This document shows positions 4,411 to 64,000 of a DNA stretch of 64,000 bases, piece by piece. A program made the position numbers and the translations under genes. The DNA is from Candidatus Daviesbacteria bacterium GW2011_GWA1_41_61 (GTDB lineage: Bacteria > Patescibacteriota > Microgenomatia > Daviesbacterales > UBA10151), in assembly GCA_000997385.1 (NCBI GenBank), contig LCBT01000001.1, positions 243,663 to 307,662 on the forward strand. Reading direction: 5' to 3'. The first letter of the stretch is position 1. Every line of letters begins with the position of its first letter. The notes under the pieces were generated by a model. That model was not told the origin of the DNA. It ran no database searches and worked only from the letters and a program-made list of their open reading frames with translations.

Positions 4411-5322
4411 CTATTGGCTTTTACGTTTTTTTAGTAGTTCTAAAGCTGAGCTACTAGTAGCAGTCGTAGTAACGGTTGCAGTGATAGTCGGTGAAACCAC
4501 TTCCATATTCACTAGATTTGGATCTGGATTAGAAACTGCCTCAGGAGTATTCCCCTCAACAGGGACAAAGATGCCAGAGGTCCCTCCACTCTCCTCTATC
4601 GGCACTTCAGATGGAGCTTGGGAGAGCGGTTTACCAATCCCTAAGATAAAATACGCTGAAGCTCCCCCCACCGCCAGCAGTACTAACACTCCAACCAAAA
4701 TAATCCACTTGGGAAATCCCATAGAACCGGATGTAATCACCTGTTTCTCCTCTGAAGAAGTAGGAATAACCATCGAAGAAGCAGTAGTAACTGCAGAAAT
4801 AGGAACCTCCAGGGGTGCTTCTTCTCCACTGCCAGTAGTTCCCACCAAATGACTTAAATCAGTCGGAGCAGCCTCATTTGAGCCAATTGGACTAACTAAA
4901 GGGTTAGTAGGGGCACCGGCATCTAAACTGCCACCGTCAGGGCTTGATCCAGTTGGAATGGAAGAAGGAGCAAAAGTCGGTGGGGGTTCAATATTACCAA
5001 AGCTTTGGGTAGTTGGGGCAGAAAAAGCTCCTAAGTCTTGAGAAGGCCAGGAAGGCTGGTAGACAGGGTTGCTATCAGGAGAAAATGTCGGTACGGGTGC
5101 CGGGGTGTTAGGATCTGCAGGAGCAGCTTCACCAAGCCCAGAGGCAGGTGGAGAGGCAGGAGATAAGCTGGGAAAATCTAAAGAAGGACCAGGAGCAGAT
5201 AAATCAGCTCCGGAGGAAGGAAAAGCAGTTGCCGCTGGAGTATTATCACCAGGATCAGAAGAAGAAATAGGAGTAGGGGGAACACCAGGGGCAGAGGGAT
5301 TGGTTGGGTTATTGGGATCCAT
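4411..5322 (-). CDS. Pro/Ser/Thr-rich low-complexity membrane protein (single TM)
   Basis: 303 aa with a disordered P/S/T/G-rich N-terminal region, one TM helix (WIILVGVLVLLAVGGASAYFILGI), and a Thr-rich C-terminal tail. Confidence 0.55.
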   Translation of the reverse strand: MDPNNPTNPSAPGVPPTPISSSDPGDNTPAATAFPSSGADLSAPGPSLDFPSLSPASPPASGLGEAAPADPNTPAPVPTFSPDSNPVYQPSWPSQDLGAFSAPTTQSFGNIEPPPTFAPSSIPTGSSPDGGSLDAGAPTNPLVSPIGSNEAAPTDLSHLVGTTGSGEEAPLEVPISAVTTASSMVIPTSSEEKQVITSGSMGFPKWIILVGVLVLLAVGGASAYFILGIGKPLSQAPSEVPIEESGGTSGIFVPVEGNTPEAVSNPDPNLVNMEVVSPTITATVTTTATSSSALELLKKRKSQ

Positions 5323-5438
5323 AGGCAGTTTTAAATACTAGAGTTAGTTTATAGAAAATTACCTTACTAGTCAATAGTTATTACTTTTGTTAAGTTTACG
5401 ATATAATAGGGTAGCTTGAAATTAGAAAGGTTTGTCTG

Positions 5439-8153
5439 ATGTTAAACATTTTTAGCAGATTTATTGATTCCAATCAAAAAGAGCTCAGCCGTTTTTCTAA
5501 AATAGTGGCTCAGATCAACGATCTGGAAAAAAAATATAAAAAGCTGACTGACCAACAGCTCAAAAAAAAGACTGAGGAATGTAAAAAGCTCTTTTCTGAG
5601 GGGGAAAGCCTTGATCAACTCCTGCCTGAAGTATACGCTGCAGCCAGAGAGGCTGGCGTTAGAACGTTAGGGCTTCGCCTCTATGATGTTCAGTTGATAG
5701 CCGCCATGGCTTTACATGAAGGAAAGATTGCGGAACAGAGAACCGGTGAAGGTAAGACTTTCACCGCTGCCCCAGCTTTATTATTAAATACTTTAACTGG
5801 TCAAGGAGTCCATCTGGTAACTGTTAATGATTATCTAGCTAGGCGTGACTGTGGTTGGATGGGACCTTTTTATGACGCTTTAGGAGCAACCTGCACCACT
5901 ATTATTCATGAACAAGCTTTTATCTTTGACCCCGCCTTTGTTGACCCAACTCATGCCGATGAGAGGCTCCGGCATCTTAGGCCTATCTCCCGCCAGGAGG
6001 CTTATGCGGCTGATATTACTTATGGCACCAATAACGAGTTTGGCTTTGATTATCTTAAGGACAATATGGTCTTTTCCTTAAAAGACAAGGCGCAACGGGG
6101 CCATCATTTTGCCATCGTTGATGAAGTAGACTCTATCTTAATAGATGAAGCCAGAACGCCGCTGATTATCTCCCGGCCGGCGCAAGAACCTACCAAAAAG
6201 TATTATGAGTTCGCTGCCTTAATGGAGAAGCTCTCCTCTTCAACTGATTATGTCATTGATGAAAAACAAAAAACAGCCAATTTAACAGAACACGGTATCG
6301 TCAAGGTAGAAAAAATGCTGGGCATCGATAACCTTTATGAAAAGGATTTCTCCACTCTCCATCACATCGAGCAGGCTTTAAAAGCCAGGGCCCTTTTTCA
6401 AAAAGACCGTGATTATGTAGTCAAAGATGGTGAGGTGATTATTGTCGATGAGTTCACCGGCAGGCTGATGCCAGGGAGAAGATATTCGGAAGGATTACAT
6501 CAAGCGATTGAAGCCAGAGAGGGGGTGGAGATTCAACAAGAGTCCCAAACTTTAGCTACTATCTCTTTCCAAAATTACTTCAGGATGTATAAAAAGCTGG
6601 CGGGAATGACCGGAACTGCTGCCACTGAAGCAGAAGAGTTCCATAAGATTTACAAATTAGAGGTCTTAGTTATTCCCACCCACATGCTAATGGTCAGAAA
6701 TGACCTCCCCGATTTGATTTACAAAACCCAAAAAGCCAAATACACCGCTGTTGCTCACTTAGTAGAAGAGCTCCATAAAAAAGGCCAGCCGGTGTTAGTT
6801 GGCACCACCTCCATAGAGAAAAACGAGTTTCTATCTGAGCTTTTAAAAAGAAAAGGTATCTCCCATGCTTTACTTAATGCTAAAAACCACGAAAAGGAAG
6901 CAGAGATTATCTCTTATGCTGGAGAAAAAGGGGCTGTGACTGTGGCTACCAATATGGCGGGGCGGGGAGTTGATATTAAACTGGGCCAAGATGTTACCAA
7001 ACTAGGCGGGTTGTGCGTTTTGGGTACGGAAAGACATGAATCCAGACGGATTGATAATCAGCTGCGAGGCCGTTCCGGACGTCAAGGCGACCCCGGAAGT
7101 TCCCGGTTTTTTGTCTCTTTGGAAGATGATCTGATGAGGATCTTTGGAGGCGAACAAGTAGCCAGGCTTATGGATTTTCTAAAAATCCCTGAAGAATCTC
7201 CTATCGAACATGGAATGGTTTCCAAGGCTTTAGAATCAGCCCAAAAGAAGGTGGAAGGCCACAACTTTGATATCAGAAAACATACTGTGGAATACGATGA
7301 CGTAATGAACCAGCAACGCCAGATTATCTATGGAGTCAGGAATAAAGTTTTAGAGGCTGCAGATGATCCTCAAATCCATGGACTCAAAGATGATGTTTTA
7401 GAAAAAATTGATAAGGCCATTGAAACTTTGGTCCAAGTTCATACTCAGGAAGGTCTGGAAACTGGTAAAATTTTTGAAGAATTTGCCGCGATCATTAATT
7501 TTGATCCCGCTTCTCAAAGTAAGCTCCAAAAACACTTGGAGGAAGCCGGTTCTTTAGAAGAGATTAACGATTTTATTATTAAAGTAGCTCATGATGCATA
7601 TGAACAAAGAGAAAAAGAAGTGGGGGAAGAGGTCGCCAGGCAGATGGAGATCTTTGTTTACTTAACGACTATTGATAATCTCTGGATTGAACATTTAGAC
7701 ACCATGGATGATTTAAGAGTAGGCATTGGACTAAGAAGTTTTGGGCAAAGGGACCCGTTAATTGAGTATAAAAAAGAGGCTTTTGAGTTGTTTAGTAAAC
7801 TTATTGCCACTATTGATTATGAGATTGTCCATAGAATCTACAAAGTAGCTGTTCAAAGGCAGCCTTTAGCATCTTCTCAGCCTATCCAGGTAGAGGAAAA
7901 ATACCCGGTGATAGAAACTGGAATTAAAGAAGAAGCAGCAGAAATCAAAGAGGTAGCCCAAGGGAAACCTTTATCTAAAGTTTTAGAGGCAGAAGGGGAG
8001 ACTACCAAAGTCACCGTTGAAAGAGACGGAGTGGTCAGTCAACAAATCTATGGATCAGGGGGACAGTTAAATAAAGCTCATGGCAAAATAGGCAGAAATG
8101 ACCCCTGCTACTGCGGTTCAGGCAAAAAATATAAAAAGTGCCACTTAAAGTAG
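5439..8153 (+). CDS. secA: Preprotein translocase ATPase SecA
   Basis: 904 aa. DEAD-like motor motifs, and a C-terminal zinc finger CYCGSGKKYKKCH. Confidence 0.95.
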   Translation: MLNIFSRFIDSNQKELSRFSKIVAQINDLEKKYKKLTDQQLKKKTEECKKLFSEGESLDQLLPEVYAAAREAGVRTLGLRLYDVQLIAAMALHEGKIAEQRTGEGKTFTAAPALLLNTLTGQGVHLVTVNDYLARRDCGWMGPFYDALGATCTTIIHEQAFIFDPAFVDPTHADERLRHLRPISRQEAYAADITYGTNNEFGFDYLKDNMVFSLKDKAQRGHHFAIVDEVDSILIDEARTPLIISRPAQEPTKKYYEFAALMEKLSSSTDYVIDEKQKTANLTEHGIVKVEKMLGIDNLYEKDFSTLHHIEQALKARALFQKDRDYVVKDGEVIIVDEFTGRLMPGRRYSEGLHQAIEAREGVEIQQESQTLATISFQNYFRMYKKLAGMTGTAATEAEEFHKIYKLEVLVIPTHMLMVRNDLPDLIYKTQKAKYTAVAHLVEELHKKGQPVLVGTTSIEKNEFLSELLKRKGISHALLNAKNHEKEAEIISYAGEKGAVTVATNMAGRGVDIKLGQDVTKLGGLCVLGTERHESRRIDNQLRGRSGRQGDPGSSRFFVSLEDDLMRIFGGEQVARLMDFLKIPEESPIEHGMVSKALESAQKKVEGHNFDIRKHTVEYDDVMNQQRQIIYGVRNKVLEAADDPQIHGLKDDVLEKIDKAIETLVQVHTQEGLETGKIFEEFAAIINFDPASQSKLQKHLEEAGSLEEINDFIIKVAHDAYEQREKEVGEEVARQMEIFVYLTTIDNLWIEHLDTMDDLRVGIGLRSFGQRDPLIEYKKEAFELFSKLIATIDYEIVHRIYKVAVQRQPLASSQPIQVEEKYPVIETGIKEEAAEIKEVAQGKPLSKVLEAEGETTKVTVERDGVVSQQIYGSGGQLNKAHGKIGRNDPCYCGSGKKYKKCHLK

Positions 8154-47121: not shown

Positions 47122-47364
47122 TCAAAGTTTTCCTTGAAATGCTTGATGTAAAACTGACTGCTGCAAAGCTTCTAATTCTTGTAATTGTTCTCGCTGAAGT
47201 TTTTTCGCTTCTCCAATTTTTTCTGAACTGTGGCCTGCAGAAGTAATCAGCAAATCTCCAATTTGAACCCTTTTTAAACCTTTTAACGAATCTTGTTTGA
47301 CAAAACCCTTATCACTCTTACCCCAATTAATGCCATTTTTCAAATGCATTTTTTGTTTGTTCAT
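47122..47364 (-). pseudogene. Type I restriction S-subunit (HsdS)-like remnant
   Basis: The C-terminus …KKLQREQLQELEALQQSVLHQAFQGKL matches the conserved HsdS C-terminal helix (L..L..SLL..AF.G.L). The N-terminus VQIGDLLITSAG resembles a TRD start. The ORF is only 80 aa. Confidence 0.4.
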
Positions 47365-50039
47365 CTAAAAAGTTTAACTAAATTAGAGAACGTTTGAAGT
47401 TTATGTTCCTTAAACTTCTCCTCGGTTACATAAAGACAATCTACAGTTATTTTTGACCGGGCTTGATTAACATCTTTACACCATTGTTTTAGCCTTTCCA
47501 ACTTTAATAGGTCATCCAAGTCTTCTCTTCCTTTAGTTTCTACAACCCAAATTTCCTGATTATTTACTTTTACAAAAAAATCAGGATAGTAATACGAGAT
47601 TGACCCCTCAGAATTTTTATAATCTATCTTAAAATGTATATCAAAATAATTCTTGGCAAATGATAAAATATCATCACATTTTTCGAGAAAATCAGCAAAT
47701 TGGAGTTCAAAATTACTATCACCTACAATTTTATTAAATATACTTTTCTTAGGTAATAAATATGTATTGTCATTTACTACGAAAGGTTTGCACTTACTAA
47801 TCTTTATATAGTTTTTTATTTCTGCATTACCTTTATCCTCAATAGTAAGATCATTAATTTCCTTTTTGAAAGTTTCAGTTATGGTTTTTGTAACTTCCAG
47901 CTCTGATAAATTACGTAGTATATTCAAATCCTCTAAGTTAACGTGATCTACAAACAAATAATCACTAATGAATTCTTTTACCTGACCAAATAAAATATCG
48001 TAACAGCCAAATAGACGCAGTTCCCTCATGATTGTTTGAGCAAAAAAACCGATGGCGCTTTGATATCTTGGCTCAATATTGGTATCTAAAACTGTTGTGT
48101 GGTGAATTTTATCAGCCACAACCTCTTTAAAAATTATTTCCTTCTTTTCTTTGTCGCTAAACTGTTTAATTGGCATTTTTTTGTGTTTGAATTTAGAAAC
48201 ATCTAGATTTGAAAGATTTTTATATTCTCTCTGAATACGGGGGGTAAGAATAGGCAGTTCTATATCAAGCTTTTCAATATCCTTTTTAACATTTTCACTA
48301 TCCACCTCAACAACAACTGGTGTAATCGGCTTTGCTCCTATATCCATTGCCCTTTTTTCGAGTATCACACCTTCTATGTTGATAGATTCAACGAAATCCA
48401 TAAATGCCGGAGTACCAATAATACTAACGTATTCCTCTATATCATCTCTGCCAAAAAACATCCTTCTTAGACCTCTACCTAAGGTTTGTTCGGGTAAAAT
48501 ATTTGCAGTTGATGAATATGCCCGTAGCCCAACGATAGTAGTTACATTTTTTACATCCCATCCTTCCTTAAGCATGAGTACTGATACAATAGCTTTAAAA
48601 GGACTCTCGTTGCTATCTATAGTATTTGCCTGTTCTCTTAACTTAATCAATTCCTTCTCGTCCTTACCTTGAATAGCTTCTGATATCTCCCCACTTTTAT
48701 TAGTGTGAATCGTTAAAACTGCATTTTTAAATTCAGGGTATGTTTTTTCTATGTACTCTGCTACTTCATCACAATTTTTTGTATCGTCAGTCATTATAAA
48801 AAGTATCGATTTTTTACCAGTCTTTTGAAGTTCTTTATAAGTTTTTCTCCATTCAATAACACCGAGATTTATATAATCCTCGTACTTCTCAGTAAATAGA
48901 GAGCTTTGATTTTCCTTAAGTTTTGCCCTACTGGCCTGATCTGGTAATACAGGATTTTTAACAACTCTTTGATGAATTGCTTCAACTAGTGGGTAATCAG
49001 AGATAACCTGGACAAAAATATTTCCATTATTATGTTTTGGAGTTGCAGTTACATCTATCTGTAGCGCTAACTCACCACCCTTTAGTTTAAGCTTATTATG
49101 AATATCTTGAATTGATTTAAACCAGGCTAATTTTTCATCATGGATATGATGCGCTTCATCGTTAATAACTATCAACTCATTGATCTCGCGGACTATTTCA
49201 CTTAAATTTACTTTTGAGTCGTTAGTTTTACCTACTGGTTTTGGTCCCAAAAAATAGTTCATGCTGTCTTCATCTTCGGCACTCAATCCATTAATATTTC
49301 CCTCAAAAACGCGGTGAATATTTGTTAAAAAAATGTTTCCGGTCGTGGATATTAGACCTACCTCATCTTGTAAATGAAGCGTTACTTGAAAGTCATCTTG
49401 CCAATTCTGCCCTCCATACCCATTATCTGGAAGTATTGGATCAACGTGGAAGATTTTCAAACCCGCAAAATCATTTTTAATTCTTTCAAGCACAATAATA
49501 TTCGGAGTAATTAGTAAAAAGTTTCGTGCCAGTTTAGAGTCCGGTTCATAAAGCTTATGAAAATATGCCCAAGCTAAAATTAAACTCATTACCTTTGTTT
49601 TTCCGCTGCCTGTTGCCATTTTAATGACAAACCTGAGCCAATCCTCATCAAACATATTAGGACTTACCCTACCCAATGAATCAAACTTTATTAAGTCATA
49701 CTTACTTTTAACTTTTGCAACTTCGTATAGCCATACGACTGTTTCAACTGCTTCTCTTTGGGAAAAATAATATCTAAAAGGGGTAGATACACCATTCTGG
49801 TCAAATATTGTATGTTCCTCTTTAAACCACCAATTCAAGAGAGCTTTTGAAGTTTCAGAAGCATCTGCATAATTACTGTTACGCCACTCCTTTACTTTTT
49901 TACGTAACTCCGAAATAAAAGGAGGTAGTAGTCTTTCATAACCACCTTTTTCTCTTAAATCCTCAACAGCGGGGAACCATCTTATATCTGGATCTAAAAT
50001 AACGTATGGGTCTTTTGGAAAATCTTTATGTAGTGCCAT
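47361..50039 (-). CDS. res: Type III restriction enzyme Res-like subunit (SF2 helicase plus C-terminal PD-(D/E)xK nuclease)
   Basis: Walker A KMATGSGKTKV, DEAH box VINDEAHH, and the C-terminal YYPDFFV…VVETKG nuclease motif. Confidence 0.8.
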   Translation of the reverse strand: MALHKDFPKDPYVILDPDIRWFPAVEDLREKGGYERLLPPFISELRKKVKEWRNSNYADASETSKALLNWWFKEEHTIFDQNGVSTPFRYYFSQREAVETVVWLYEVAKVKSKYDLIKFDSLGRVSPNMFDEDWLRFVIKMATGSGKTKVMSLILAWAYFHKLYEPDSKLARNFLLITPNIIVLERIKNDFAGLKIFHVDPILPDNGYGGQNWQDDFQVTLHLQDEVGLISTTGNIFLTNIHRVFEGNINGLSAEDEDSMNYFLGPKPVGKTNDSKVNLSEIVREINELIVINDEAHHIHDEKLAWFKSIQDIHNKLKLKGGELALQIDVTATPKHNNGNIFVQVISDYPLVEAIHQRVVKNPVLPDQASRAKLKENQSSLFTEKYEDYINLGVIEWRKTYKELQKTGKKSILFIMTDDTKNCDEVAEYIEKTYPEFKNAVLTIHTNKSGEISEAIQGKDEKELIKLREQANTIDSNESPFKAIVSVLMLKEGWDVKNVTTIVGLRAYSSTANILPEQTLGRGLRRMFFGRDDIEEYVSIIGTPAFMDFVESINIEGVILEKRAMDIGAKPITPVVVEVDSENVKKDIEKLDIELPILTPRIQREYKNLSNLDVSKFKHKKMPIKQFSDKEKKEIIFKEVVADKIHHTTVLDTNIEPRYQSAIGFFAQTIMRELRLFGCYDILFGQVKEFISDYLFVDHVNLEDLNILRNLSELEVTKTITETFKKEINDLTIEDKGNAEIKNYIKISKCKPFVVNDNTYLLPKKSIFNKIVGDSNFELQFADFLEKCDDILSFAKNYFDIHFKIDYKNSEGSISYYYPDFFVKVNNQEIWVVETKGREDLDDLLKLERLKQWCKDVNQARSKITVDCLYVTEEKFKEHKLQTFSNLVKLFR

Positions 50040-50104
50040 ATATCATTATCAAAGCCATCTGAAAATGGAAAATGAGTCCTTTAGCCTCAAAAATTCAGAT
50101 TGTT

Positions 50105-51475
50105 TTACCTATTTTCAACCCCCTTTGAAAACAGACTAAGTTGTTGCATATTCTCTTTAGTTTTTTGCTGGATTGTTTTTTTTGCTTTAAGAATAAACTT
50201 AATTGGCAGATAATCCTGTGTTAATCCCCAATATTTCAGTTTTCCTTCCTGTTTTTTCACCTCTATTACCCCAGCATCTCTTAATGGATTAAAATAATAA
50301 CCAGATATATTTGAGGGAGCTTTTTTTAATTGTATGGCTAAATCTTTTTGAGTTACATAGTTACTTGATGTTGCTAAAAATATTAGTAGTTCTTCTTGTT
50401 CTTTTGTTAACTCGCTTTTTTTAATCACCTCCCAGCGTTCTTTACCAAGTAACAGCATTGCTTCATCAACACCCAAAGGCTCCAGTACTGTTTCAGGTAC
50501 CTGACTGAGAATATCCTTTAATCCATTCATAATCGAACGGGCATCTCCCTCGTATAAATCATATAAACTGAAAATTGCCTCATTTGAGAATGGTGCTATA
50601 TATTTAACGACATCAGGAGATTTTAATAGCTCCATTCTTTCTTCAAACGCTTTAATTATTTCTAATTTACTAAGTGGATTAACCACTAACGGTGATAAGT
50701 GAAATACACTTTTTAAACGTTTCTCTACAGATATAATATCTCTGAAGAAATGCTTTGGCCCTAAAAATAAATAATAAACATCTCTTGTTTGAAGAATATC
50801 CCGTATTTCCTGAAAAAATCCTATAACACCCTTTTTTTCTTTTGAGTCGGATAGCACAATATCAAAATTATTGATATGAACAATAAGACCACCAAACTTT
50901 TTCCCTGCTATTTCATGAGTCTTTATAAACTCCACAAGATTAGAAAAATAGTTTTCGAGCATGGTATTTGATATACTTGGGGGATATTCTGTTGTTCCTG
51001 TTTTACCGAACTCTCCACCAAACCCCGCAATACTAATTCCTGCGGAAATATCTAAACTTTGAGTAATATCAACAAGTTTTTCTAGTTTTTGAAGTAATTC
51101 TTCTTTTTTGATAAGATCAGGGTCAAGAAGTCTGATCTCCCTAAGGGTAGATCCGATAACCTCTGTTAAGAAACTTTTTTTGTTTAAAAGATTTTTTGAT
51201 GCTTCTATTTCCCTTCGGAACGAAAAAAGAGGTTTCTTTTTCTCTTCATATTTAAATAGAAACTTATGGAAATTAGCCAAGCTTGTTTTGCCTACACCGA
51301 CATTTCCAAGAATTGTCAAACAGGCTCTTGAATCAGAAAGAAAGATATCCTTCAGGCTTTGAAGCTCGACAGTTCTTCCTACAAATGCTTTGTGGATAGG
51401 TAATTCCCCACCCTCTATAAGAGGGAGAGTATCATAAGGGTTGCTTCGTAATCCAAATTGCTGCCAGTTAATCAT
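50105..51475 (-). CDS. P-loop NTPase (AAA_16/STAND-like) with C-terminal winged-helix domain, embedded between mod and res
   Basis: FVGRTVELQSL…ILGNVGVGKTSLANF Walker A. C-terminal wHTH-like region …TQKDLAIQLKK…GVIEV…. Confidence 0.6.
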   Translation of the reverse strand: MINWQQFGLRSNPYDTLPLIEGGELPIHKAFVGRTVELQSLKDIFLSDSRACLTILGNVGVGKTSLANFHKFLFKYEEKKKPLFSFRREIEASKNLLNKKSFLTEVIGSTLREIRLLDPDLIKKEELLQKLEKLVDITQSLDISAGISIAGFGGEFGKTGTTEYPPSISNTMLENYFSNLVEFIKTHEIAGKKFGGLIVHINNFDIVLSDSKEKKGVIGFFQEIRDILQTRDVYYLFLGPKHFFRDIISVEKRLKSVFHLSPLVVNPLSKLEIIKAFEERMELLKSPDVVKYIAPFSNEAIFSLYDLYEGDARSIMNGLKDILSQVPETVLEPLGVDEAMLLLGKERWEVIKKSELTKEQEELLIFLATSSNYVTQKDLAIQLKKAPSNISGYYFNPLRDAGVIEVKKQEGKLKYWGLTQDYLPIKFILKAKKTIQQKTKENMQQLSLFSKGVENR

Positions 51476-51592
51476 ATGTATTTTCTATATATATAGTTAT
51501 TTATACAAATCTCTATATATTAAATTTGCTTTATAATCAAGTAGCCACACTTAATAGTATTCATGCAATTAATTTATTCCTCTTTTATATAA

Positions 51593-53767
51593 CTATATAT
51601 TTACCTCAATAACTTTTGTTGTGTCGTTGCCAAAAATATCTACAACTTTTACTGCAAGTTTGCGTGATCCCTTTGAGACTTCTTTAGCTGCCGAAATTAA
51701 TTCTAAACTTCGATCTTTTTTGGTACGGAATGATTGCCATTCATTTTCAAAAATATAGTTTCCCGTCCAGGCATCTTCTTCATCTTCATTTTTTTGATTC
51801 CTTATTCTTATGAATTCCTTTTTACTTTCAAAGTTAAAATCTACCGCCCAATAATCAACCCAATCTGTCCATTTCGTTGTTAAAACCTCACGGTTAATAA
51901 CCTCTGAATCCTTGCCTTTACTAAGTCTTATAACTTGACCATTTTCAATCACAACCTTACTGCCTCCAGATTTTAACTTTTCTTCAACCTCTCCTGTATC
52001 ATCTTGGTTATAAAAAACACTAAAATCACTTAATTCAATAGCTACAGTATTCTTTTTGACAATTGGTTTAACCTCTATAAATGCCACCTCGTAGAATTTT
52101 ACTTGTCCCTTTTCAACAGCTTTTTTATCAAATACCTCTCGTGGTATTACTCTAAGTTGCAGATCAACTCCTTGATTTTTAAACTGATCTACTTCAAGTC
52201 CCATCTCCCAATCAAACCCAAGTACGTCTACTTTGGTAATGTTTTTCTCTACACATTCAACTACTACTTGATGTAAAAAGTCTCCGGAAACAGGAAAGTT
52301 TATTGGACCGATAGCCACAAGGCGGTCTCTTTTTTTACCGACCATAGTTAAAAATGAATCCACAGGTTCCGCTTTGTATGCTGACAATATCAATTTAATA
52401 AATTCTTTTTCTTTTATGTCTTGTTGTAATTGTCTTTCTTCTTCTCTTAAATCTGGGTTTACTTGGATAAACAAATCCCGTTCGTATGTTCCTATATTCA
52501 AAATTTCAAAGGCTCTAAAATTCTTACCCACTTTTTTCAGTTCTCTTTGAACTCCAATCATTCTTTTACGAGTAGTATGAATAGCAAATCTTCCCAAATC
52601 AGAACCAATCCATTTTCTACCCAACTTCTCGGCAACTGCTAATGTAGTTCCAGAACCCACAAAAAAATCTGCAACGATATCACCTTCATCAGAAGAAGCA
52701 GTGATTATACGTCTAAGTAGGAATTCAGGTTTTTGTGTAGGATAATCAAGCAATTCCTTTGAGGAAGTTGCAACCCCAAATCCTGGAATGTCTGTCCAGA
52801 TAGAATCCTGGGGAATTGTGTATTCATCTAAATAGTATTTTTTATATTTTTGCCCACTTGAAGAAACATAAATTAACCCTCTTTCTTCAAAATCTTTTAT
52901 CGATATTGGTGAATAATCGCCAAGAGTAGTTCTTTTGAATTTTCTACCATCAGGATCTTGATATCTAAATTCATTGAGTTGCTTATCGACAAGAGTGCCA
53001 CTTTGAGGGTGAAATATATGTGAGTCTGATTTTGAGTAACAAAAAATTATATCAAACGTTTTTGGCCAATGTTTTGCTACTGCTTTTGCACCTTTACCTA
53101 CAGCATCTTTTTTCCAAATAATTTCTCCACGGTAATTAGCACTACCAAACAATTCATTTAGAATCATCCTTAGATAGCTGTTAAGTCGCCAATCGCAATG
53201 GACATATATACTTCCTTTATCTGCTAGTAAATCAGCCATTAATTTTAATCGCTCATAAATCATTGCAATAAAACTGTCAGCTCCTTTACCCCAAGTGTCC
53301 CGATAAGCAACTTCTTCTATAATTGAGGGTTTCTTAGTAAATTCTTCATCACCTATCTGTACATTCATGGAAAAATCAGCACCTACATCAAATGGTGGGT
53401 CAATATAAATGAGTTTTATACCACCTTGAGCTTCAATTTCTTTACGGAGGGGACCGTTTTTAAGGGAGGACAGAATTAATTTATTGTCGCCCCAGATAAG
53501 TTTGTTTGTCCAGCCTTGGATTTGATGACCGGAAGTGTCAAAAAGAGTTTGTTGCATTTTTATCTCCGCTTCACTTCTTGGCTCATCAATATGCTCAATT
53601 GTTTGAAAAGGGAGAACAATATTACTAACCTCATTTGTCTTCCCATTCCACACCAACTCAACCTCCCGTTCATCATCAAAAAGAAGAAACCTGTACTTAT
53701 CGGGTAATGGCTTACCTGATTCAAGGTATTTTATAACATCACGTTTTTCATTGTCAGATAGTTTCAT
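51593..53767 (-). CDS. mod: Type III Mod-like beta-class N6-adenine (or N4-cytosine) DNA methyltransferase with roughly 300-aa C-terminal extension
   Basis: Motif IV IDPPFD precedes motif I FFVGSGTT (beta-class order). Total 724 aa. Confidence 0.8.
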   Translation of the reverse strand: MKLSDNEKRDVIKYLESGKPLPDKYRFLLFDDEREVELVWNGKTNEVSNIVLPFQTIEHIDEPRSEAEIKMQQTLFDTSGHQIQGWTNKLIWGDNKLILSSLKNGPLRKEIEAQGGIKLIYIDPPFDVGADFSMNVQIGDEEFTKKPSIIEEVAYRDTWGKGADSFIAMIYERLKLMADLLADKGSIYVHCDWRLNSYLRMILNELFGSANYRGEIIWKKDAVGKGAKAVAKHWPKTFDIIFCYSKSDSHIFHPQSGTLVDKQLNEFRYQDPDGRKFKRTTLGDYSPISIKDFEERGLIYVSSSGQKYKKYYLDEYTIPQDSIWTDIPGFGVATSSKELLDYPTQKPEFLLRRIITASSDEGDIVADFFVGSGTTLAVAEKLGRKWIGSDLGRFAIHTTRKRMIGVQRELKKVGKNFRAFEILNIGTYERDLFIQVNPDLREEERQLQQDIKEKEFIKLILSAYKAEPVDSFLTMVGKKRDRLVAIGPINFPVSGDFLHQVVVECVEKNITKVDVLGFDWEMGLEVDQFKNQGVDLQLRVIPREVFDKKAVEKGQVKFYEVAFIEVKPIVKKNTVAIELSDFSVFYNQDDTGEVEEKLKSGGSKVVIENGQVIRLSKGKDSEVINREVLTTKWTDWVDYWAVDFNFESKKEFIRIRNQKNEDEEDAWTGNYIFENEWQSFRTKKDRSLELISAAKEVSKGSRKLAVKVVDIFGNDTTKVIEVNI

Positions 53768-61583: not shown

Positions 61584-62102
61584 ATGCCCCCAAGCACTTC
61601 GAGTACAATTAGAACCGCTTTTGGTATACTTATTTTTGTGAAAAATCTTTATCAAAATTCTCAACTATTAACCCAAAAAGATTTTAAAAAATTAGAAAAA
61701 GCTTTTGAATATGCATGGTCAAAAGAAACAACTAGTCCGATTATAGAAGACGAATGGTCAGAAGATAATAAAGCATACGGACAATGTGCCATTACAGCTT
61801 TAATCATTTGTGATTTATATGGAGGTAGAATAATTTATGATAAAGGTAACTTACACGTTTGGAATGAATTACCCGATGGAACACAACAAGATTTTAGTAG
61901 AAAACAATATAAAGAAGATCTAATTTTTACGATTTACAAATATAAAACTAAAGGAGATTTGTTATCTGACAATTATGGTCGAAAAACGCAAATTACCCCA
62001 AGATACCAATTACTAAAACAAAGACTAGAAGCAAAACTCAAAAGATTAAAATTCAATGTTAATTCATTAGTAATTTTACTTCCCCTCAATCGATTAAGAT
62101 AA
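61584..62102 (+). CDS. Hypothetical protein (A+T-rich gene)
   Basis: 172-aa ORF with no clear motif. Its start may be an internal GTG (VKNLYQ…). Convergent with the small peptide ORF. Confidence 0.45.
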   Translation: MPPSTSSTIRTAFGILIFVKNLYQNSQLLTQKDFKKLEKAFEYAWSKETTSPIIEDEWSEDNKAYGQCAITALIICDLYGGRIIYDKGNLHVWNELPDGTQQDFSRKQYKEDLIFTIYKYKTKGDLLSDNYGRKTQITPRYQLLKQRLEAKLKRLKFNVNSLVILLPLNRLR

Positions 62103-62198
62103 TTAGATTTTCTTTAAAGTTTTTGTTTGTTTTGAAGTTTTTTTTACTTTGATACTTTTTACAGCTTCAAAATCTAGGACTGCCTTACATTTTCCCAT
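62103..62198 (-). CDS. Unannotated 31-aa Lys-rich peptide ORF immediately downstream of tandem radical SAM genes (candidate precursor or small protein)
   Basis: Canonical SD AAGGAGGT located 9 nt upstream of ATG 62198. Sequence MGKCKAVLDFEAVKSIKVKKTSKQTKTLKKI. Lies 58 nt after the rSAM stop. Confidence 0.4.
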   Translation of the reverse strand: MGKCKAVLDFEAVKSIKVKKTSKQTKTLKKI

Positions 62199-62255
62199 TT
62201 TTAAATACCTCCTTTCTTGGTTTAAATTCAGATTTATAACTATGAGTATAACATA

Positions 62256-63224
62256 TCAATCAAAAAAATGAGCTACGATATTATCGTAGTCGATAATATT
62301 TCTCATATTACTACGGCTTACATATGCCTGAGAATTTTCCATTATTTCTTTGAAAGCTGATATTTTAGCATCTAACACTTGTTTCTTTAAATTAGAAAAT
62401 GTTTCAGTAGGATATTTGCAAAGTGCCAATTTGAGAGGAAAGCCATACCACGGTAAAACATATCCATTTGGTAATATATGTAAAGAAGGTATTGTAAAAA
62501 GAACCTTATTTTTTTGTAATTCAGTCTTCTTTACAAGATTTGAAGTCAAATAAATATTATATTTCTCTTTCAGACGTTTAAGCGTACTATTAAGTGAAAT
62601 CAAGTGTTTTTCATCACAACCAATTGTTTGTTTGTGTTTTATTGCTCTCCCATAAAAATCAACGTGAGAAAAACGAATTGCCCGAACTCCTTTATCGATA
62701 CATATATTAACTACATCTTCCATATAAGGAAGCGTCTGAGGAGTTACCATAGATTGCACAAAGACAGGAATTTTTTCGACCTGTAATAGGCTAAGGGCAT
62801 CAATAGCTGCAACATAACTACTATCTTGCCTTCGTAACCAATCATGAGTTCTTTTACATCCATCGATACTTATTCCTACACCGTCTACATACTTCTTAAA
62901 TCTGTGCAGGTTCGTTCTATTAAGCAAAATGCCATTTGTAAAAATGTAGACTTTTATTTGGCTATTGAGTTGCTTTATGTATTTTACCAGAGGAACAATT
63001 TTCTTTAACACCAAGAGAGGTTCACCCCCAGAAATCGTAAATGCGTTAAAACCATTATCTATTAAATCTTTAAGTACTAATTTCCAATCATCCAATTCCA
63101 ATTCCTCAGCTAAAGAATGTCCTGCTTCCGTAAAACAATGTAAACATTGTAAGTTGCATTGTTTGGTAATTTCTAAGAGAACATGACGGTGAAAATTATA
63201 ATTTTTGACTAAAATATTATTCAT
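62256..63224 (-). CDS. Radical SAM enzyme (core domain only)
   Basis: CNLQCLHC (Cx3Cx2C) at residues 23-30, and a GGEPLL motif. Its start overlaps the upstream gene stop (TAATG). Confidence 0.8.
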   Translation of the reverse strand: MNNILVKNYNFHRHVLLEITKQCNLQCLHCFTEAGHSLAEELELDDWKLVLKDLIDNGFNAFTISGGEPLLVLKKIVPLVKYIKQLNSQIKVYIFTNGILLNRTNLHRFKKYVDGVGISIDGCKRTHDWLRRQDSSYVAAIDALSLLQVEKIPVFVQSMVTPQTLPYMEDVVNICIDKGVRAIRFSHVDFYGRAIKHKQTIGCDEKHLISLNSTLKRLKEKYNIYLTSNLVKKTELQKNKVLFTIPSLHILPNGYVLPWYGFPLKLALCKYPTETFSNLKKQVLDAKISAFKEIMENSQAYVSRSNMRNIIDYDNIVAHFFD

Positions 63225-64000
63225 TATCTTGTTTTTGCTAATTTCATATAATTACGAAGTGTTTTTGGACAACCACCACGATTCAGGCAAGCAGAAAAGT
63301 GAGTTGAAGATAAATAACTATAACCACAATAGTCTCTATCTTGTATTTGTTGATGAAAGTTAACATTGGTCTTCAATAAATCCTTAATATTATCTGTCAC
63401 AAGATTACCTATCTTGTATTCATCAGAGAGGTATGACAATTCAACGCAAGGGTACAAGTCCCCTTTATAAGAAATAAACAAGTCACTGTTACTACATTCA
63501 CAACGGAATTGATAATTTTTTAATATTTTTTCGTGGTAGATACTCTTAATAATATTTATTAAGTATCTTTGATCTTCGATTAATGGTCTTTTTAGCTTTA
63601 AAATTACCTCATTATCGTTGGCTCGACCATTGAAGACAAAATCATTAATTTTAATTTCATTTATTCCTGTATCTTTTGCAAATAATACAAGCTCTTCAAG
63701 ATCGTTAATAGTAATATTTGATACGGTAGCACTAATAACAACTGAAATACCTAATTTTTGAATTTTTTTAATATTATTCATAATAATTAACACTTTATCT
63801 CTTTTTAAAATCTTATTATGCTCGTCCACTAAAGAATCAAGACTAAAAGCTACAATCGAAATATATTTTTTAAAATTTACTAAAAGTTTGTTAGTAATTA
63901 AACTCCCATTAGTAAATATTGAAACTAGCATTTCTTTTTGGTGTGCGTATTTAACTAAATTCCAAAAATAATCTTTTATTAGTGGCTCACCTCCAGTAAA
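63224..64000 (-). CDS. Radical SAM/SPASM-domain enzyme, N-terminally truncated by the window edge
   Basis: The frame stays open to the window end, translating …FTGGEPLIKDYFWNLV… (GGE motif). C-terminal Cys-rich SPASM-like region CECS…YPCV…CGYSYLSSTHFSACLNRGGCP. Confidence 0.75.
   Translation of the reverse strand, partial: FTGGEPLIKDYFWNLVKYAHQKEMLVSIFTNGSLITNKLLVNFKKYISIVAFSLDSLVDEHNKILKRDKVLIIMNNIKKIQKLGISVVISATVSNITINDLEELVLFAKDTGINEIKINDFVFNGRANDNEVILKLKRPLIEDQRYLINIIKSIYHEKILKNYQFRCECSNSDLFISYKGDLYPCVELSYLSDEYKIGNLVTDNIKDLLKTNVNFHQQIQDRDYCGYSYLSSTHFSACLNRGGCPKTLRNYMKLAKTR

Follow-up and report, generated by a model that had tools for sequence, protein, structure and literature searches.

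Cassettes that pair a short peptide gene with radical S-adenosylmethionine (SAM) enzymes of the SPASM type are already well known as a kind. In the mycofactocin system, a peptide of about 30 residues with an invariant short motif is encoded in one cassette with a radical SAM/SPASM maturase and a PF02633 hydrolase, its distribution is patchy and there is no exporter; in the biosynthesis of pyrroloquinoline quinone (PQQ), the cofactor derives from a short peptide with invariant residues. Among maturases of ribosomally synthesized and post-translationally modified peptides (RiPPs), PapB and QhpD make Cys-to-Asp/Glu thioethers, and SkfB makes the thioether between Cys4 and Met12 of SkfA. The cassettes defined by Haft (HxsB/HxsC of the His-Xaa-Ser system, ScmE/ScmF of SynChlorMet and the GDL-motif rad_SAM_trio) carry two or three paralogous radical SAM/SPASM genes in tandem with a short peptide gene. 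Here we describe a cassette that shares traits with these systems and, judged by profile scores, fits no curated family. It lies at the end of a 64,000-nucleotide stretch of Candidatus Daviesbacteria bacterium GW2011_GWA1_41_61 (hereafter the window), where two radical SAM genes are followed by a 31-codon open reading frame (ORF).

The product of this ORF is, in our view, probably the precursor (substrate) peptide of a multi-enzyme radical SAM maturation cassette. The original prediction, made from the window alone, had likened the locus to RiPP or cofactor maturation cassettes, and this reading gains support from the co-conservation of peptide and enzymes and from the RiPP-maturase-like fold predicted for one of the enzymes. 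Two types of cassette were distinguished, type 1, to which the window belongs, and a sister type 2. The radical SAM enzymes are named below by length (440-, 313- and 322-type) and the loci by number (L001 and so on).

Conservation of the peptide gene

The layout of the window block (Table 1) agrees in most points with what had been predicted. The two radical SAM genes overlap by 1 nt at position 63224 (AGA-TAA/ATG, a TAATG junction), and the single-cysteine ORF stands behind a canonical Shine-Dalgarno sequence. The gap between the 322-type stop codon and the ORF measures 57 nt, not the 58 first given, and the peptide, thought to be unannotated, is present in GenBank as a hypothetical protein of Candidatus Daviesbacteria (KKR93102.1 / KKS15646.1). 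Taken alone, an ORF of 31 codons is uninformative because ORFs of such size abound in A+T-rich DNA; we counted 62 ORFs of 25 aa or longer lying wholly or partly in the final 6 kb of the window. We accepted it as a gene because it is conserved in related loci.

The peptide gene was found directly 3' of the 322-type gene in every type-1 locus with readable DNA (L001-L006, L086-L090 and L093, the P0017 contig excluded), so that the ORF, as had been asked of it, is conserved beside homologous radical SAM pairs. Residues 1-11 (MGKCKAVLDFE) are identical in all of these copies and contain the only cysteine, Cys4; conservation is partial in residues 12-20 (x-x-K-x-[IL]-x-[VAIT]-K-K), and the tail varies from about 6 to about 28 residues. 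The DNA around seven distant homologues of the 322-type enzyme (39-50% identity) encodes the same cassette, with an MGKCKAVLDFE ORF after the 322-type gene in all seven. Orthologues of this enzyme form about 20 clusters at 43-89% identity, followed by a steep drop to generic radical SAM enzymes at 30% or less, and the other enzyme families of the cassette are alike in size (about 21-22 clusters each before a similar drop).

The codons of the 11 invariant residues vary synonymously (Gly GGA/GGT/GGG, Leu CTA/TTG/TTA, Asp GAT/GAC, Ala GCA/GCT/GCC), and no replacement change was seen in this segment among the type-1 copies compared. The start codon, GTG in L006, is preceded at a distance of 6-9 nt by AGGAGGT or GGGAGGT in all type-1 loci. 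Because third-position changes are synonymous and the Shine-Dalgarno sequence is kept, we regard the peptide as the product of a translated gene, which the codon comparison shows to be under strong purifying selection. The same observations rule out a conserved RNA element in place of a peptide. They also bear on the most sceptical explanation of the locus, namely a known housekeeping pair of radical SAM enzymes (anaerobic sulfatase maturase, heme, molybdenum-cofactor or PQQ type) with a chance ORF or an RNA element behind it. Besides the sheer number of ORFs of this size in A+T-rich DNA, this explanation could draw on a terminator-like hairpin at 62273-62289, which a T-run follows; a regulatory role of the hairpin was rejected, since it lies within the DYDNIVA codons and is not conserved, and the 4-6 of 6 pairs kept elsewhere are accounted for by the complementarity of Tyr, Ile and Val codons. 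A promoter of the peptide gene's own was likewise dropped (14 promoter-like sites against 15.2 expected from shuffled sequence).

Copies of the peptide were also recovered by searches aimed at the peptide itself. When 1.84 billion representative proteins were searched exhaustively with a profile of the peptide, the only matches were nine short proteins, all of which start with MGKC[KT]AV[LM]D[FL]E. A degenerate DNA pattern for GKCKAVLDFE matched three metagenome contigs; two of the matches lie in a complete cassette, and the third, on a 1.3-kb contig, is directly followed by a methyltransferase gene of the cassette type. The pattern had no match in viral contigs, and a viral origin was dropped. 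The gene caller had merged the peptide of L086 with the preceding enzyme, with which it is in frame. Divergent variants in the G+C-rich loci L094 and L096, which lack the B12-binding radical SAM gene and encode enzymes of only 32-49% identity, still contain a peptide (MGKCKAVLDFEIKKNLGIKKS... and MGKCTAVLDLERKKTLAIKKS...) that starts with MGKCKAVLDFE or MGKCTAVLDLE and has a longer tail with fewer Lys; in L096 it directly follows the enzyme gene.

Composition of the type-1 cassette

The radical SAM pair and the peptide gene of the window are the 3' end of a cassette of six or seven genes. Contig L001 of Candidatus Daviesbacteria GW2011_GWA1_41_61, which belongs to the Microgenomates of the Candidate Phyla Radiation (CPR), matches the final 6 kb of the window with 100% identity and extends past its end (window position = 73225 - L001 position). 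Extension in the upstream direction, which had been proposed as a way to find a precursor, transporter or peptidase, revealed genes for a creatininase-family hydrolase, an RNHCP protein, a B12-binding radical SAM enzyme and the 440-type radical SAM/SPASM enzyme. The type-1 order starts with the creatininase-family (PF02633) and RNHCP zinc-ribbon (PF12647) genes, which lie upstream of the enzymes and are divergent to them, and continues with the B12-binding radical SAM, 440-type, 313-type, 322-type and peptide genes. The complete cassette is likewise present in four more listed assemblies (L002-L005), and at least 24 public contigs encode a 322-aa protein identical to that of the window. In L087 the creatininase and RNHCP genes are fused.

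Two of the enzyme genes are interrupted in some copies. In the window's organism, a frameshift splits the B12-binding radical SAM gene into ORFs of 287 and 194 aa. It lies within eight consecutive T (GATATATTTTTTTTGATGAC; L001 7106-7113, about 2.1 kb past window position 64000), a run shared by all five listed assemblies L001-L005, whereas L006, L086, L087, L088, L090 and the P0017 contig have an intact gene (462-485 aa). The frameshift could reflect real decay or be rescued by transcriptional slippage. In L006 (Patescibacteria metagenome-assembled genome (MAG), JBDRHU010000033.1, 9977-10961), the 322-type gene is split into overlapping ORFs of 173 and 175 aa, either as a pseudogene or through an assembly error.

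Many cassette loci, though not that of the window's organism, also encode a class-I SAM methyltransferase of about 250 aa (Table 1), which is 30-35% identical between the two types. Downstream of the cassette, L088 also has a fifth radical SAM/SPASM gene (404 aa), a Peptidase_S51 gene and a flavodoxin gene. The operon of L090 contains genes for a metallo-beta-lactamase (MBL)-fold hydrolase, a class-III aminotransferase and a flavin reductase (5084-7748), and that of L011 contains a class-I/II aminotransferase gene (5429-6601); these inserted enzymes hint at a small-molecule-like tailoring of the product. Polyamine genes adjoin the cassette in two loci. A BpsA_C aminopropyltransferase is encoded in L090 (605-1825) and in the archaeal L098 (5972-8233), the two proteins being 33% identical, and L098 additionally encodes a spermine synthase and an AdoMet decarboxylase. 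This neighbourhood may be a coincidence or may link the Lys-rich peptide to aminopropylation.

Table 1. Features of the window block and of accompanying methyltransferase genes (positions without a locus number are those of the window)
Feature	Position	Strand	Basis
313-type radical SAM/SPASM-like gene, 3' 258 codons and stop	63224..64000	-	translation, PF04055, PF13186
322-type radical SAM gene, 322 aa, type-1 cassette only	62256..63224	-	PF04055, CX3CX2C
Shine-Dalgarno sequence AAGGAGGT	62207..62214	-	8 nt before peptide ATG
31-aa precursor-peptide gene (putative) MGKCKAVLDFEAVKSIKVKKTSKQTKTLKKI	62103..62198	-	cross-locus conservation, synonymous changes
Class-I methyltransferase sites	L088 11083-13194; L086 6316-7092; L091 214-948; L094 4423-5217; L031 6162-6926		

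Enzymes of the cassette and their relation to known families

The 440-type enzyme has the canonical SPASM cysteine pattern (TIGR04085, 44.8 bits against a cut-off of 27), and its top sequence match among solved structures is PqqE. Its C-terminal extension is predicted to adopt a winged-helix layout resembling a RiPP recognition element (RRE).

The 313-type gene runs past the end of the window, as predicted, and its complete form was read on L001 (9060-10001, 313 aa), where the 55 N-terminal residues missing from the window include the CX3CX2C motif (C15/C19/C22). The window fragment begins with FTGGEPL, in line with the GGE motif noted before, and matches PF04055 (44.7 bits; 84.7 for the complete protein) and the SPASM family PF13186 (28.7 bits, cut-off 21.5). 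A SPASM-like C-terminus had been ascribed to this enzyme. That assignment stands as far as the PF13186 match and six additional cysteines, invariant in the family alignment, are concerned, whereas the canonical CX2CX5CX3C pattern is not present. When TIGR04085 was run on the two window enzymes, as had been suggested, neither passed; within the cassette its cut-off is passed by the 440-type enzyme alone, outside the window.

The 322-type enzyme matches PF04055 (68.2 bits) and Fer4_12 and has an SGGEP motif; its CX3CX2C motif, already noted, reads CNLQCLHC (C23/C27/C30), and these three are the only invariant cysteines of the family alignment. Both of the window enzymes thus possess the features of the radical SAM superfamily (CX3CX2C, GGE, PF04055). 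Pfam scan and family alignment revealed neither a SPASM match nor conserved auxiliary-cluster cysteines in the 322-type. The closest folds to its AlphaFold2 model (predicted local distance difference test score, pLDDT, 94) are the RiPP maturases SkfB, SuiB and CteB, with SkfB also the top sequence match, and the segment SLHILPNGxVLPWYG resembles a SPASM hairpin with Trp in place of Cys. We infer that the 322-type is an enzyme of the SPASM/twitch lineage that has lost its auxiliary clusters.

The creatininase homologue (PF02633, 178 bits) retains the metal ligands and the catalytic His, its E-x-H, D, GH and H..ET elements aligning with creatininase 1q3k. It scores 113 bits against the creatininase equivalog (cut-off 235), and its second-best NCBIfam match is MftE (TIGR03964, 98.7 against 172), so that it is an equivalog of neither. 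Two homologues that rank just under the orthologue group, P0148 and P0149, belong to operons of sugar metabolism and were set aside as unrelated.

No cassette protein reaches an NCBIfam equivalog or subfamily cut-off, the generic TIGR04085 model being passed by the 440-type only. The top matches (NirJ, SkfB, MftC, PqqE, PapB, anSME, viperin and MoaA) score 3-10 times under threshold. Among cofactor-type models the scores are 103.8 against 515 for NirJ, 52.8-73.1 against 381 for PqqE, 69.7-94 against 500 for AhbD and 62-76 against 284 for MoaA; among peptide maturases they are 83.9 against 300 for SkfB, 65.7 against 850 for AlbA, 65-70 against 340 for PapB and 73-89 against 265 for MftC (TIGR03962). 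With the anaerobic sulfatase maturase model TIGR03942 (cut-off 349), the scores are 36.9 and 64.8 bits, and no sulfatase gene was found in any locus examined. Because these scores lie so far under the cut-offs, we do not regard the enzymes as orthologues of the curated housekeeping or RiPP maturase families, and the caveat that the pair might be a known housekeeping one found no backing. Together with the synonymous-only variation over 11 codons, this effectively refutes the explanation by housekeeping enzymes and a chance ORF. The enzymes resemble sactipeptide and ranthipeptide maturases in fold and may work alike, without being members of those families.

Sister cassettes in CPR bacteria and DPANN archaea

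Conservation is highest in the 440-type enzyme (48-60% identity within type 1), which has more full-length relatives at 36-46%, one of them in a Pacearchaeota locus where a 34-aa ORF (MSKCKAILDVKKIERISLQKK...) lies directly upstream of its gene. A loose motif scan of the fetched loci revealed peptides starting with MSKCKAVLDS[KQ]K in Moraniibacteriota and other Patescibacteria, and a sister peptide (MSKCTAIMDSEK...) is encoded on a Woesearchaeota contig. The sister motif, MSKC[KT]A[VI][LM]D, is accompanied by 440-type and 313-type homologues. The type-2 cassette consists of these two enzymes, a protein of about 190 aa and the peptide, whose gene comes last in bacteria and first in archaea. Of three copies of the 190-aa protein scanned, two match the CxxCxxCC domain (PF03692) weakly and one is above the Pfam cut-off. 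The Shine-Dalgarno sequence is kept by most bacterial type-2 peptide genes, L011 being the sole exception among the bacteria. The scan of the genome collection used generic radical SAM motifs, and the number of type-2 loci is a lower bound.

Across the whole family, the shared elements are the peptide start M-[GS]-K-C-[KT]-A-[VI]-[LM]-D and the 440-type and 313-type enzymes. The type-1-specific elements are the 322-type enzyme, creatininase and RNHCP, and the optional ones are the B12-binding radical SAM enzyme and the class-I methyltransferase. Of all the enzymes, only the 440-type was present throughout the loci examined; the 313-type joins it everywhere except in the plasmid-borne L100/L101. 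Taken together, the loci show that the peptide is co-inherited across CPR bacteria with its enzymes, two to four of which are radical SAM enzymes of the peptide-maturase fold, and has a sister form in DPANN archaea. Bacterial type-2 440-type enzymes are closer to the archaeal ones (52-59% identity) than to those of type 1 (38-40%), which points to an exchange of the cassette between CPR bacteria and DPANN archaea.

Two outlying loci deserve mention. In L100/L101 (8093-11038), the 440-type relative has 345 aa, is 37-38% identical and lacks the C-terminal extension; its gene is preceded by those of a methyltransferase, a PhyH dioxygenase and a 71-aa ORF starting with MSKC (MSKCRPKATEKMAS...KMLDVSE...), and the contig is conjugative-plasmid-like (VirB4, TrbL, Rep3). 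L023 (JALOBP010000042.1, labelled Methanoregula sp., G+C 0.35) contains a type-2 cassette whose peptide (MSKCKAVLDSQKVTKITVKKK...) is nearly identical to those of Moraniibacteriota and has a bacterial Shine-Dalgarno sequence in front of its gene; the contig probably comes from a CPR bacterium and was wrongly binned with a methanogen MAG.

Proposed maturation pathway

A short precursor gene that is co-localized and co-inherited with modifying enzymes is the generic mark of a RiPP cassette, and both properties were found here. The best reading of the comparative data is a RiPP-type or cofactor-type maturation system that would act on the invariant N-terminal segment, with Cys4 and Asp9 as its key residues. 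This segment (M-[GS]-K-C-[KT]-A-[VI]-[LM]-D), in which every motif-sharing variant keeps Cys4 and Asp9, is the presumed site of modification. The 440-type enzyme would probably bind the peptide and carry out the first reaction. A cross-link centred on Cys4, for example a thioether that joins it to Asp9 or to an adjacent residue, is its most plausible outcome; our preferred guess, at low confidence, is a Cys4-X4-Asp9 link. The 313-type and 322-type enzymes could introduce additional radical-mediated changes, with C-methylation by the B12-binding radical SAM enzyme, and methylation by the class-I methyltransferase, as optional tailoring. By analogy with MftE, the creatininase-family hydrolase might trim the modified peptide. 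Residues 12-20 may act as a docking helix, and the variable Lys-rich tail would be a dispensable follower.

The roles of the two halves of the peptide could also be reversed. A conserved N-terminus followed by a hypervariable C-terminus corresponds to leader and core in most RiPP classes, the tails are cationic like antimicrobial peptides, and transporters of the major facilitator superfamily (MFS) are encoded near some loci, which would suit a secreted RiPP whose N-terminus is the leader or recognition segment and whose Lys-rich C-terminus is the core of a cationic bioactive peptide. However, the tails share no modifiable residue and range from about 6 to about 28 residues; their Lys-richness is lost in G+C-rich hosts, so that the Lys bias partly follows base composition, while the sole cysteine and the residues conserved across domains (Cys4 and Asp9) are N-terminal, and neither an exporter nor a leader peptidase is conserved. 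We hold a secreted product to be quite improbable.

The basic character of the peptide invites another explanation, in which it is a co-transcribed mini-protein with a nucleic-acid-binding, ribosome-associated or regulatory role and the radical SAM enzymes act on a substrate other than a peptide, for example a cofactor, a lipid or a polyamine. The polyamine genes that adjoin the cassette in L090 and L098 (BpsA_C, spermine synthase, AdoMet decarboxylase), the aminotransferases within the L090 and L011 operons and the presence of heme-d1, AhbD and MoaA-type enzymes among the best NCBIfam matches, all far under cut-off, are compatible with such a role. Against it, peptide and enzymes are strictly co-inherited from about 90% down to about 30% identity and in two domains of life, a pattern typical of a substrate and its enzymes; the closest folds belong to maturases that modify peptides, and the basic part of the peptide differs from its invariant segment. 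A non-substrate role is accordingly given very little credence here.

Several observations weigh against a precursor role of the peptide as such. PqqD and RRE models find no sequence match in the C-terminus of the 440-type enzyme, and neither a conserved exporter nor a classical leader-type peptidase was detected across the cassette loci. In the archaeal loci there is no 322-type enzyme, creatininase or RNHCP, so the enzymes of the window are unequally tied to the peptide, and in L094 the peptide gene lies 3.4 kb away from the enzymes. The frameshift in the B12-binding radical SAM gene and the split 322-type gene of L006 indicate that some copies may be decaying. A single cysteine restricts sactipeptide- or ranthipeptide-like chemistry to one thioether, and the chemistry of modification proposed above is inferred throughout.

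Within the precursor reading, we incline to a product that is retained and resembles a cofactor, not to a diversifying antimicrobial, because an exporter and a leader peptidase are not conserved, because the core is near-invariant across two domains, and because aminotransferase, flavin-reductase and MBL genes sit in some of the variant operons. The fullest form of this idea, a new peptide-derived cofactor or metabolite made in the manner of PQQ or mycofactocin, built by three radical SAM enzymes from the residues around Cys4...Asp9, released by the hydrolase and shared between CPR and DPANN by inter-domain transfer, is offered tentatively and is, as a whole, rather unlikely. Genomes of CPR bacteria and DPANN archaea are minimal and have very small biosynthetic capacity. 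Because a pathway of five to seven genes is retained and the first 9-11 residues are nearly fixed across both groups, the product would seem to matter to the physiology of these organisms, and it could serve as a cofactor, handle metals or redox reactions, or take part in the interaction with the host. If the cofactor idea is true, the pathway would be common to both great radiations of ultra-small symbionts. The system may in any case offer new chemistry, with a core that starts at Met1, up to four radical SAM enzymes and one SPASM-fold enzyme minus auxiliary clusters.

Genomic context and origin of the block

The block was predicted to be A+T-rich, and its G+C content is 0.295 across 62103-64000 against 0.399 in the remaining window. 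Its neighbour, a YunG-family gene (61584..62102, plus strand), is convergent to the peptide gene and the two stop codons abut (TAA|TTA at 62100-62105), leaving no intergenic room for a terminator, so that the convergent transcripts must overlap. A second A+T-rich island (47361-53767, minus strand, G+C 0.30-0.35) contains a type III restriction-modification-like set with an 892-aa ResIII helicase carrying a C-terminal endonuclease domain, a 724-aa N6/N4 DNA methylase and a 456-aa protein with a weak, sub-threshold AAA ATPase match.

From the A+T-richness, the block had been taken for acquired accessory DNA, a proposal about origin and not function. In its favour, the G+C content of the cassette in the window's organism is 0.31 against 0.37-0.39 in the flanks, and the cassette is under at least one flank in all six loci compared and under both in four of them. 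Its distribution is patchy, with at least two type-1 loci (L006 and L029, the contig of the latter ending inside the 322-type gene) among the matches listed from a scan of 185,579 GTDB species representatives. Each lineage has other genes on the flanks, L087 has an integrase and a resolvase nearby, and the closeness of type-2 CPR enzymes to archaeal ones (see above) implies an inter-domain transfer at some time. On the other hand, no mobility genes, repeats or tRNA were found flanking the cassette in the window's organism, the adjoining YunG gene is equally A+T-rich, low G+C may mirror amino-acid composition, and the 40-50% divergence of the enzymes among CPR lineages fits a long vertical residence. 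Acquisition is plausible but unproven, and recent acquisition, while a serious possibility, is somewhat doubtful.

Comparison with known systems

Full-text literature searches turned up no description of the peptide or its enzymes. The mycofactocin traits outlined at the beginning (the short motif-bearing peptide, maturase and PF02633 hydrolase in one cassette, the patchy distribution and the lack of an exporter) recur here, and MftC and MftE are among the best NCBIfam matches of the cassette proteins. The invariant motif, however, is N-terminal (MGKCKAVLDFE) and not C-terminal as in MftA (IDGxCGVY / GVY), there are three or four radical SAM enzymes instead of one and an RNHCP zinc-ribbon partner, and MftB, MftD and MftF are absent from all loci examined. 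The PQQ system is similar in the use of a short peptide with invariant residues and, in one variant operon (L090), in the combination of an MBL-fold protein with other tailoring enzymes; it differs in its Glu-X3-Tyr motif, which the cassette peptide lacks, as the cassette lacks orthologues of PqqB, PqqC and PqqF.

With SkfA/SkfB, the likeness lies in the match of the 322-type enzyme to SkfB and in the proposed chemistry, since a one-cysteine thioether such as Cys4-Met12 is the simplest for a peptide with one Cys. Unlike SkfB, CteB, PapB and QhpD, the 322-type enzyme has neither auxiliary-cluster cysteines nor an N-terminal RRE; the Cys-X4-Asp spacing of the cassette peptide differs from the CX3D spacing of PapA, and, unlike the Skf, sactipeptide and ranthipeptide systems, the cassette contains no cyclase, protease or ATP-binding cassette (ABC) genes. 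The multi-enzyme cassettes of Haft share its tandem paralogous radical SAM genes with a short peptide and, like it, are known by comparative genomics only, whereas their models give 62-76 bits against cut-offs of 268-592, and they differ in peptide motif, in partners (here creatininase, RNHCP and the CxxCxxCC protein) and in the CPR/DPANN range. The distinctive features of the present cassette are thus an invariant core that starts from the initiator Met, three or four radical SAM enzymes including a cluster-less paralogue with SPASM fold, creatininase-RNHCP or CxxCxxCC partners, and hosts among CPR bacteria and DPANN archaea.

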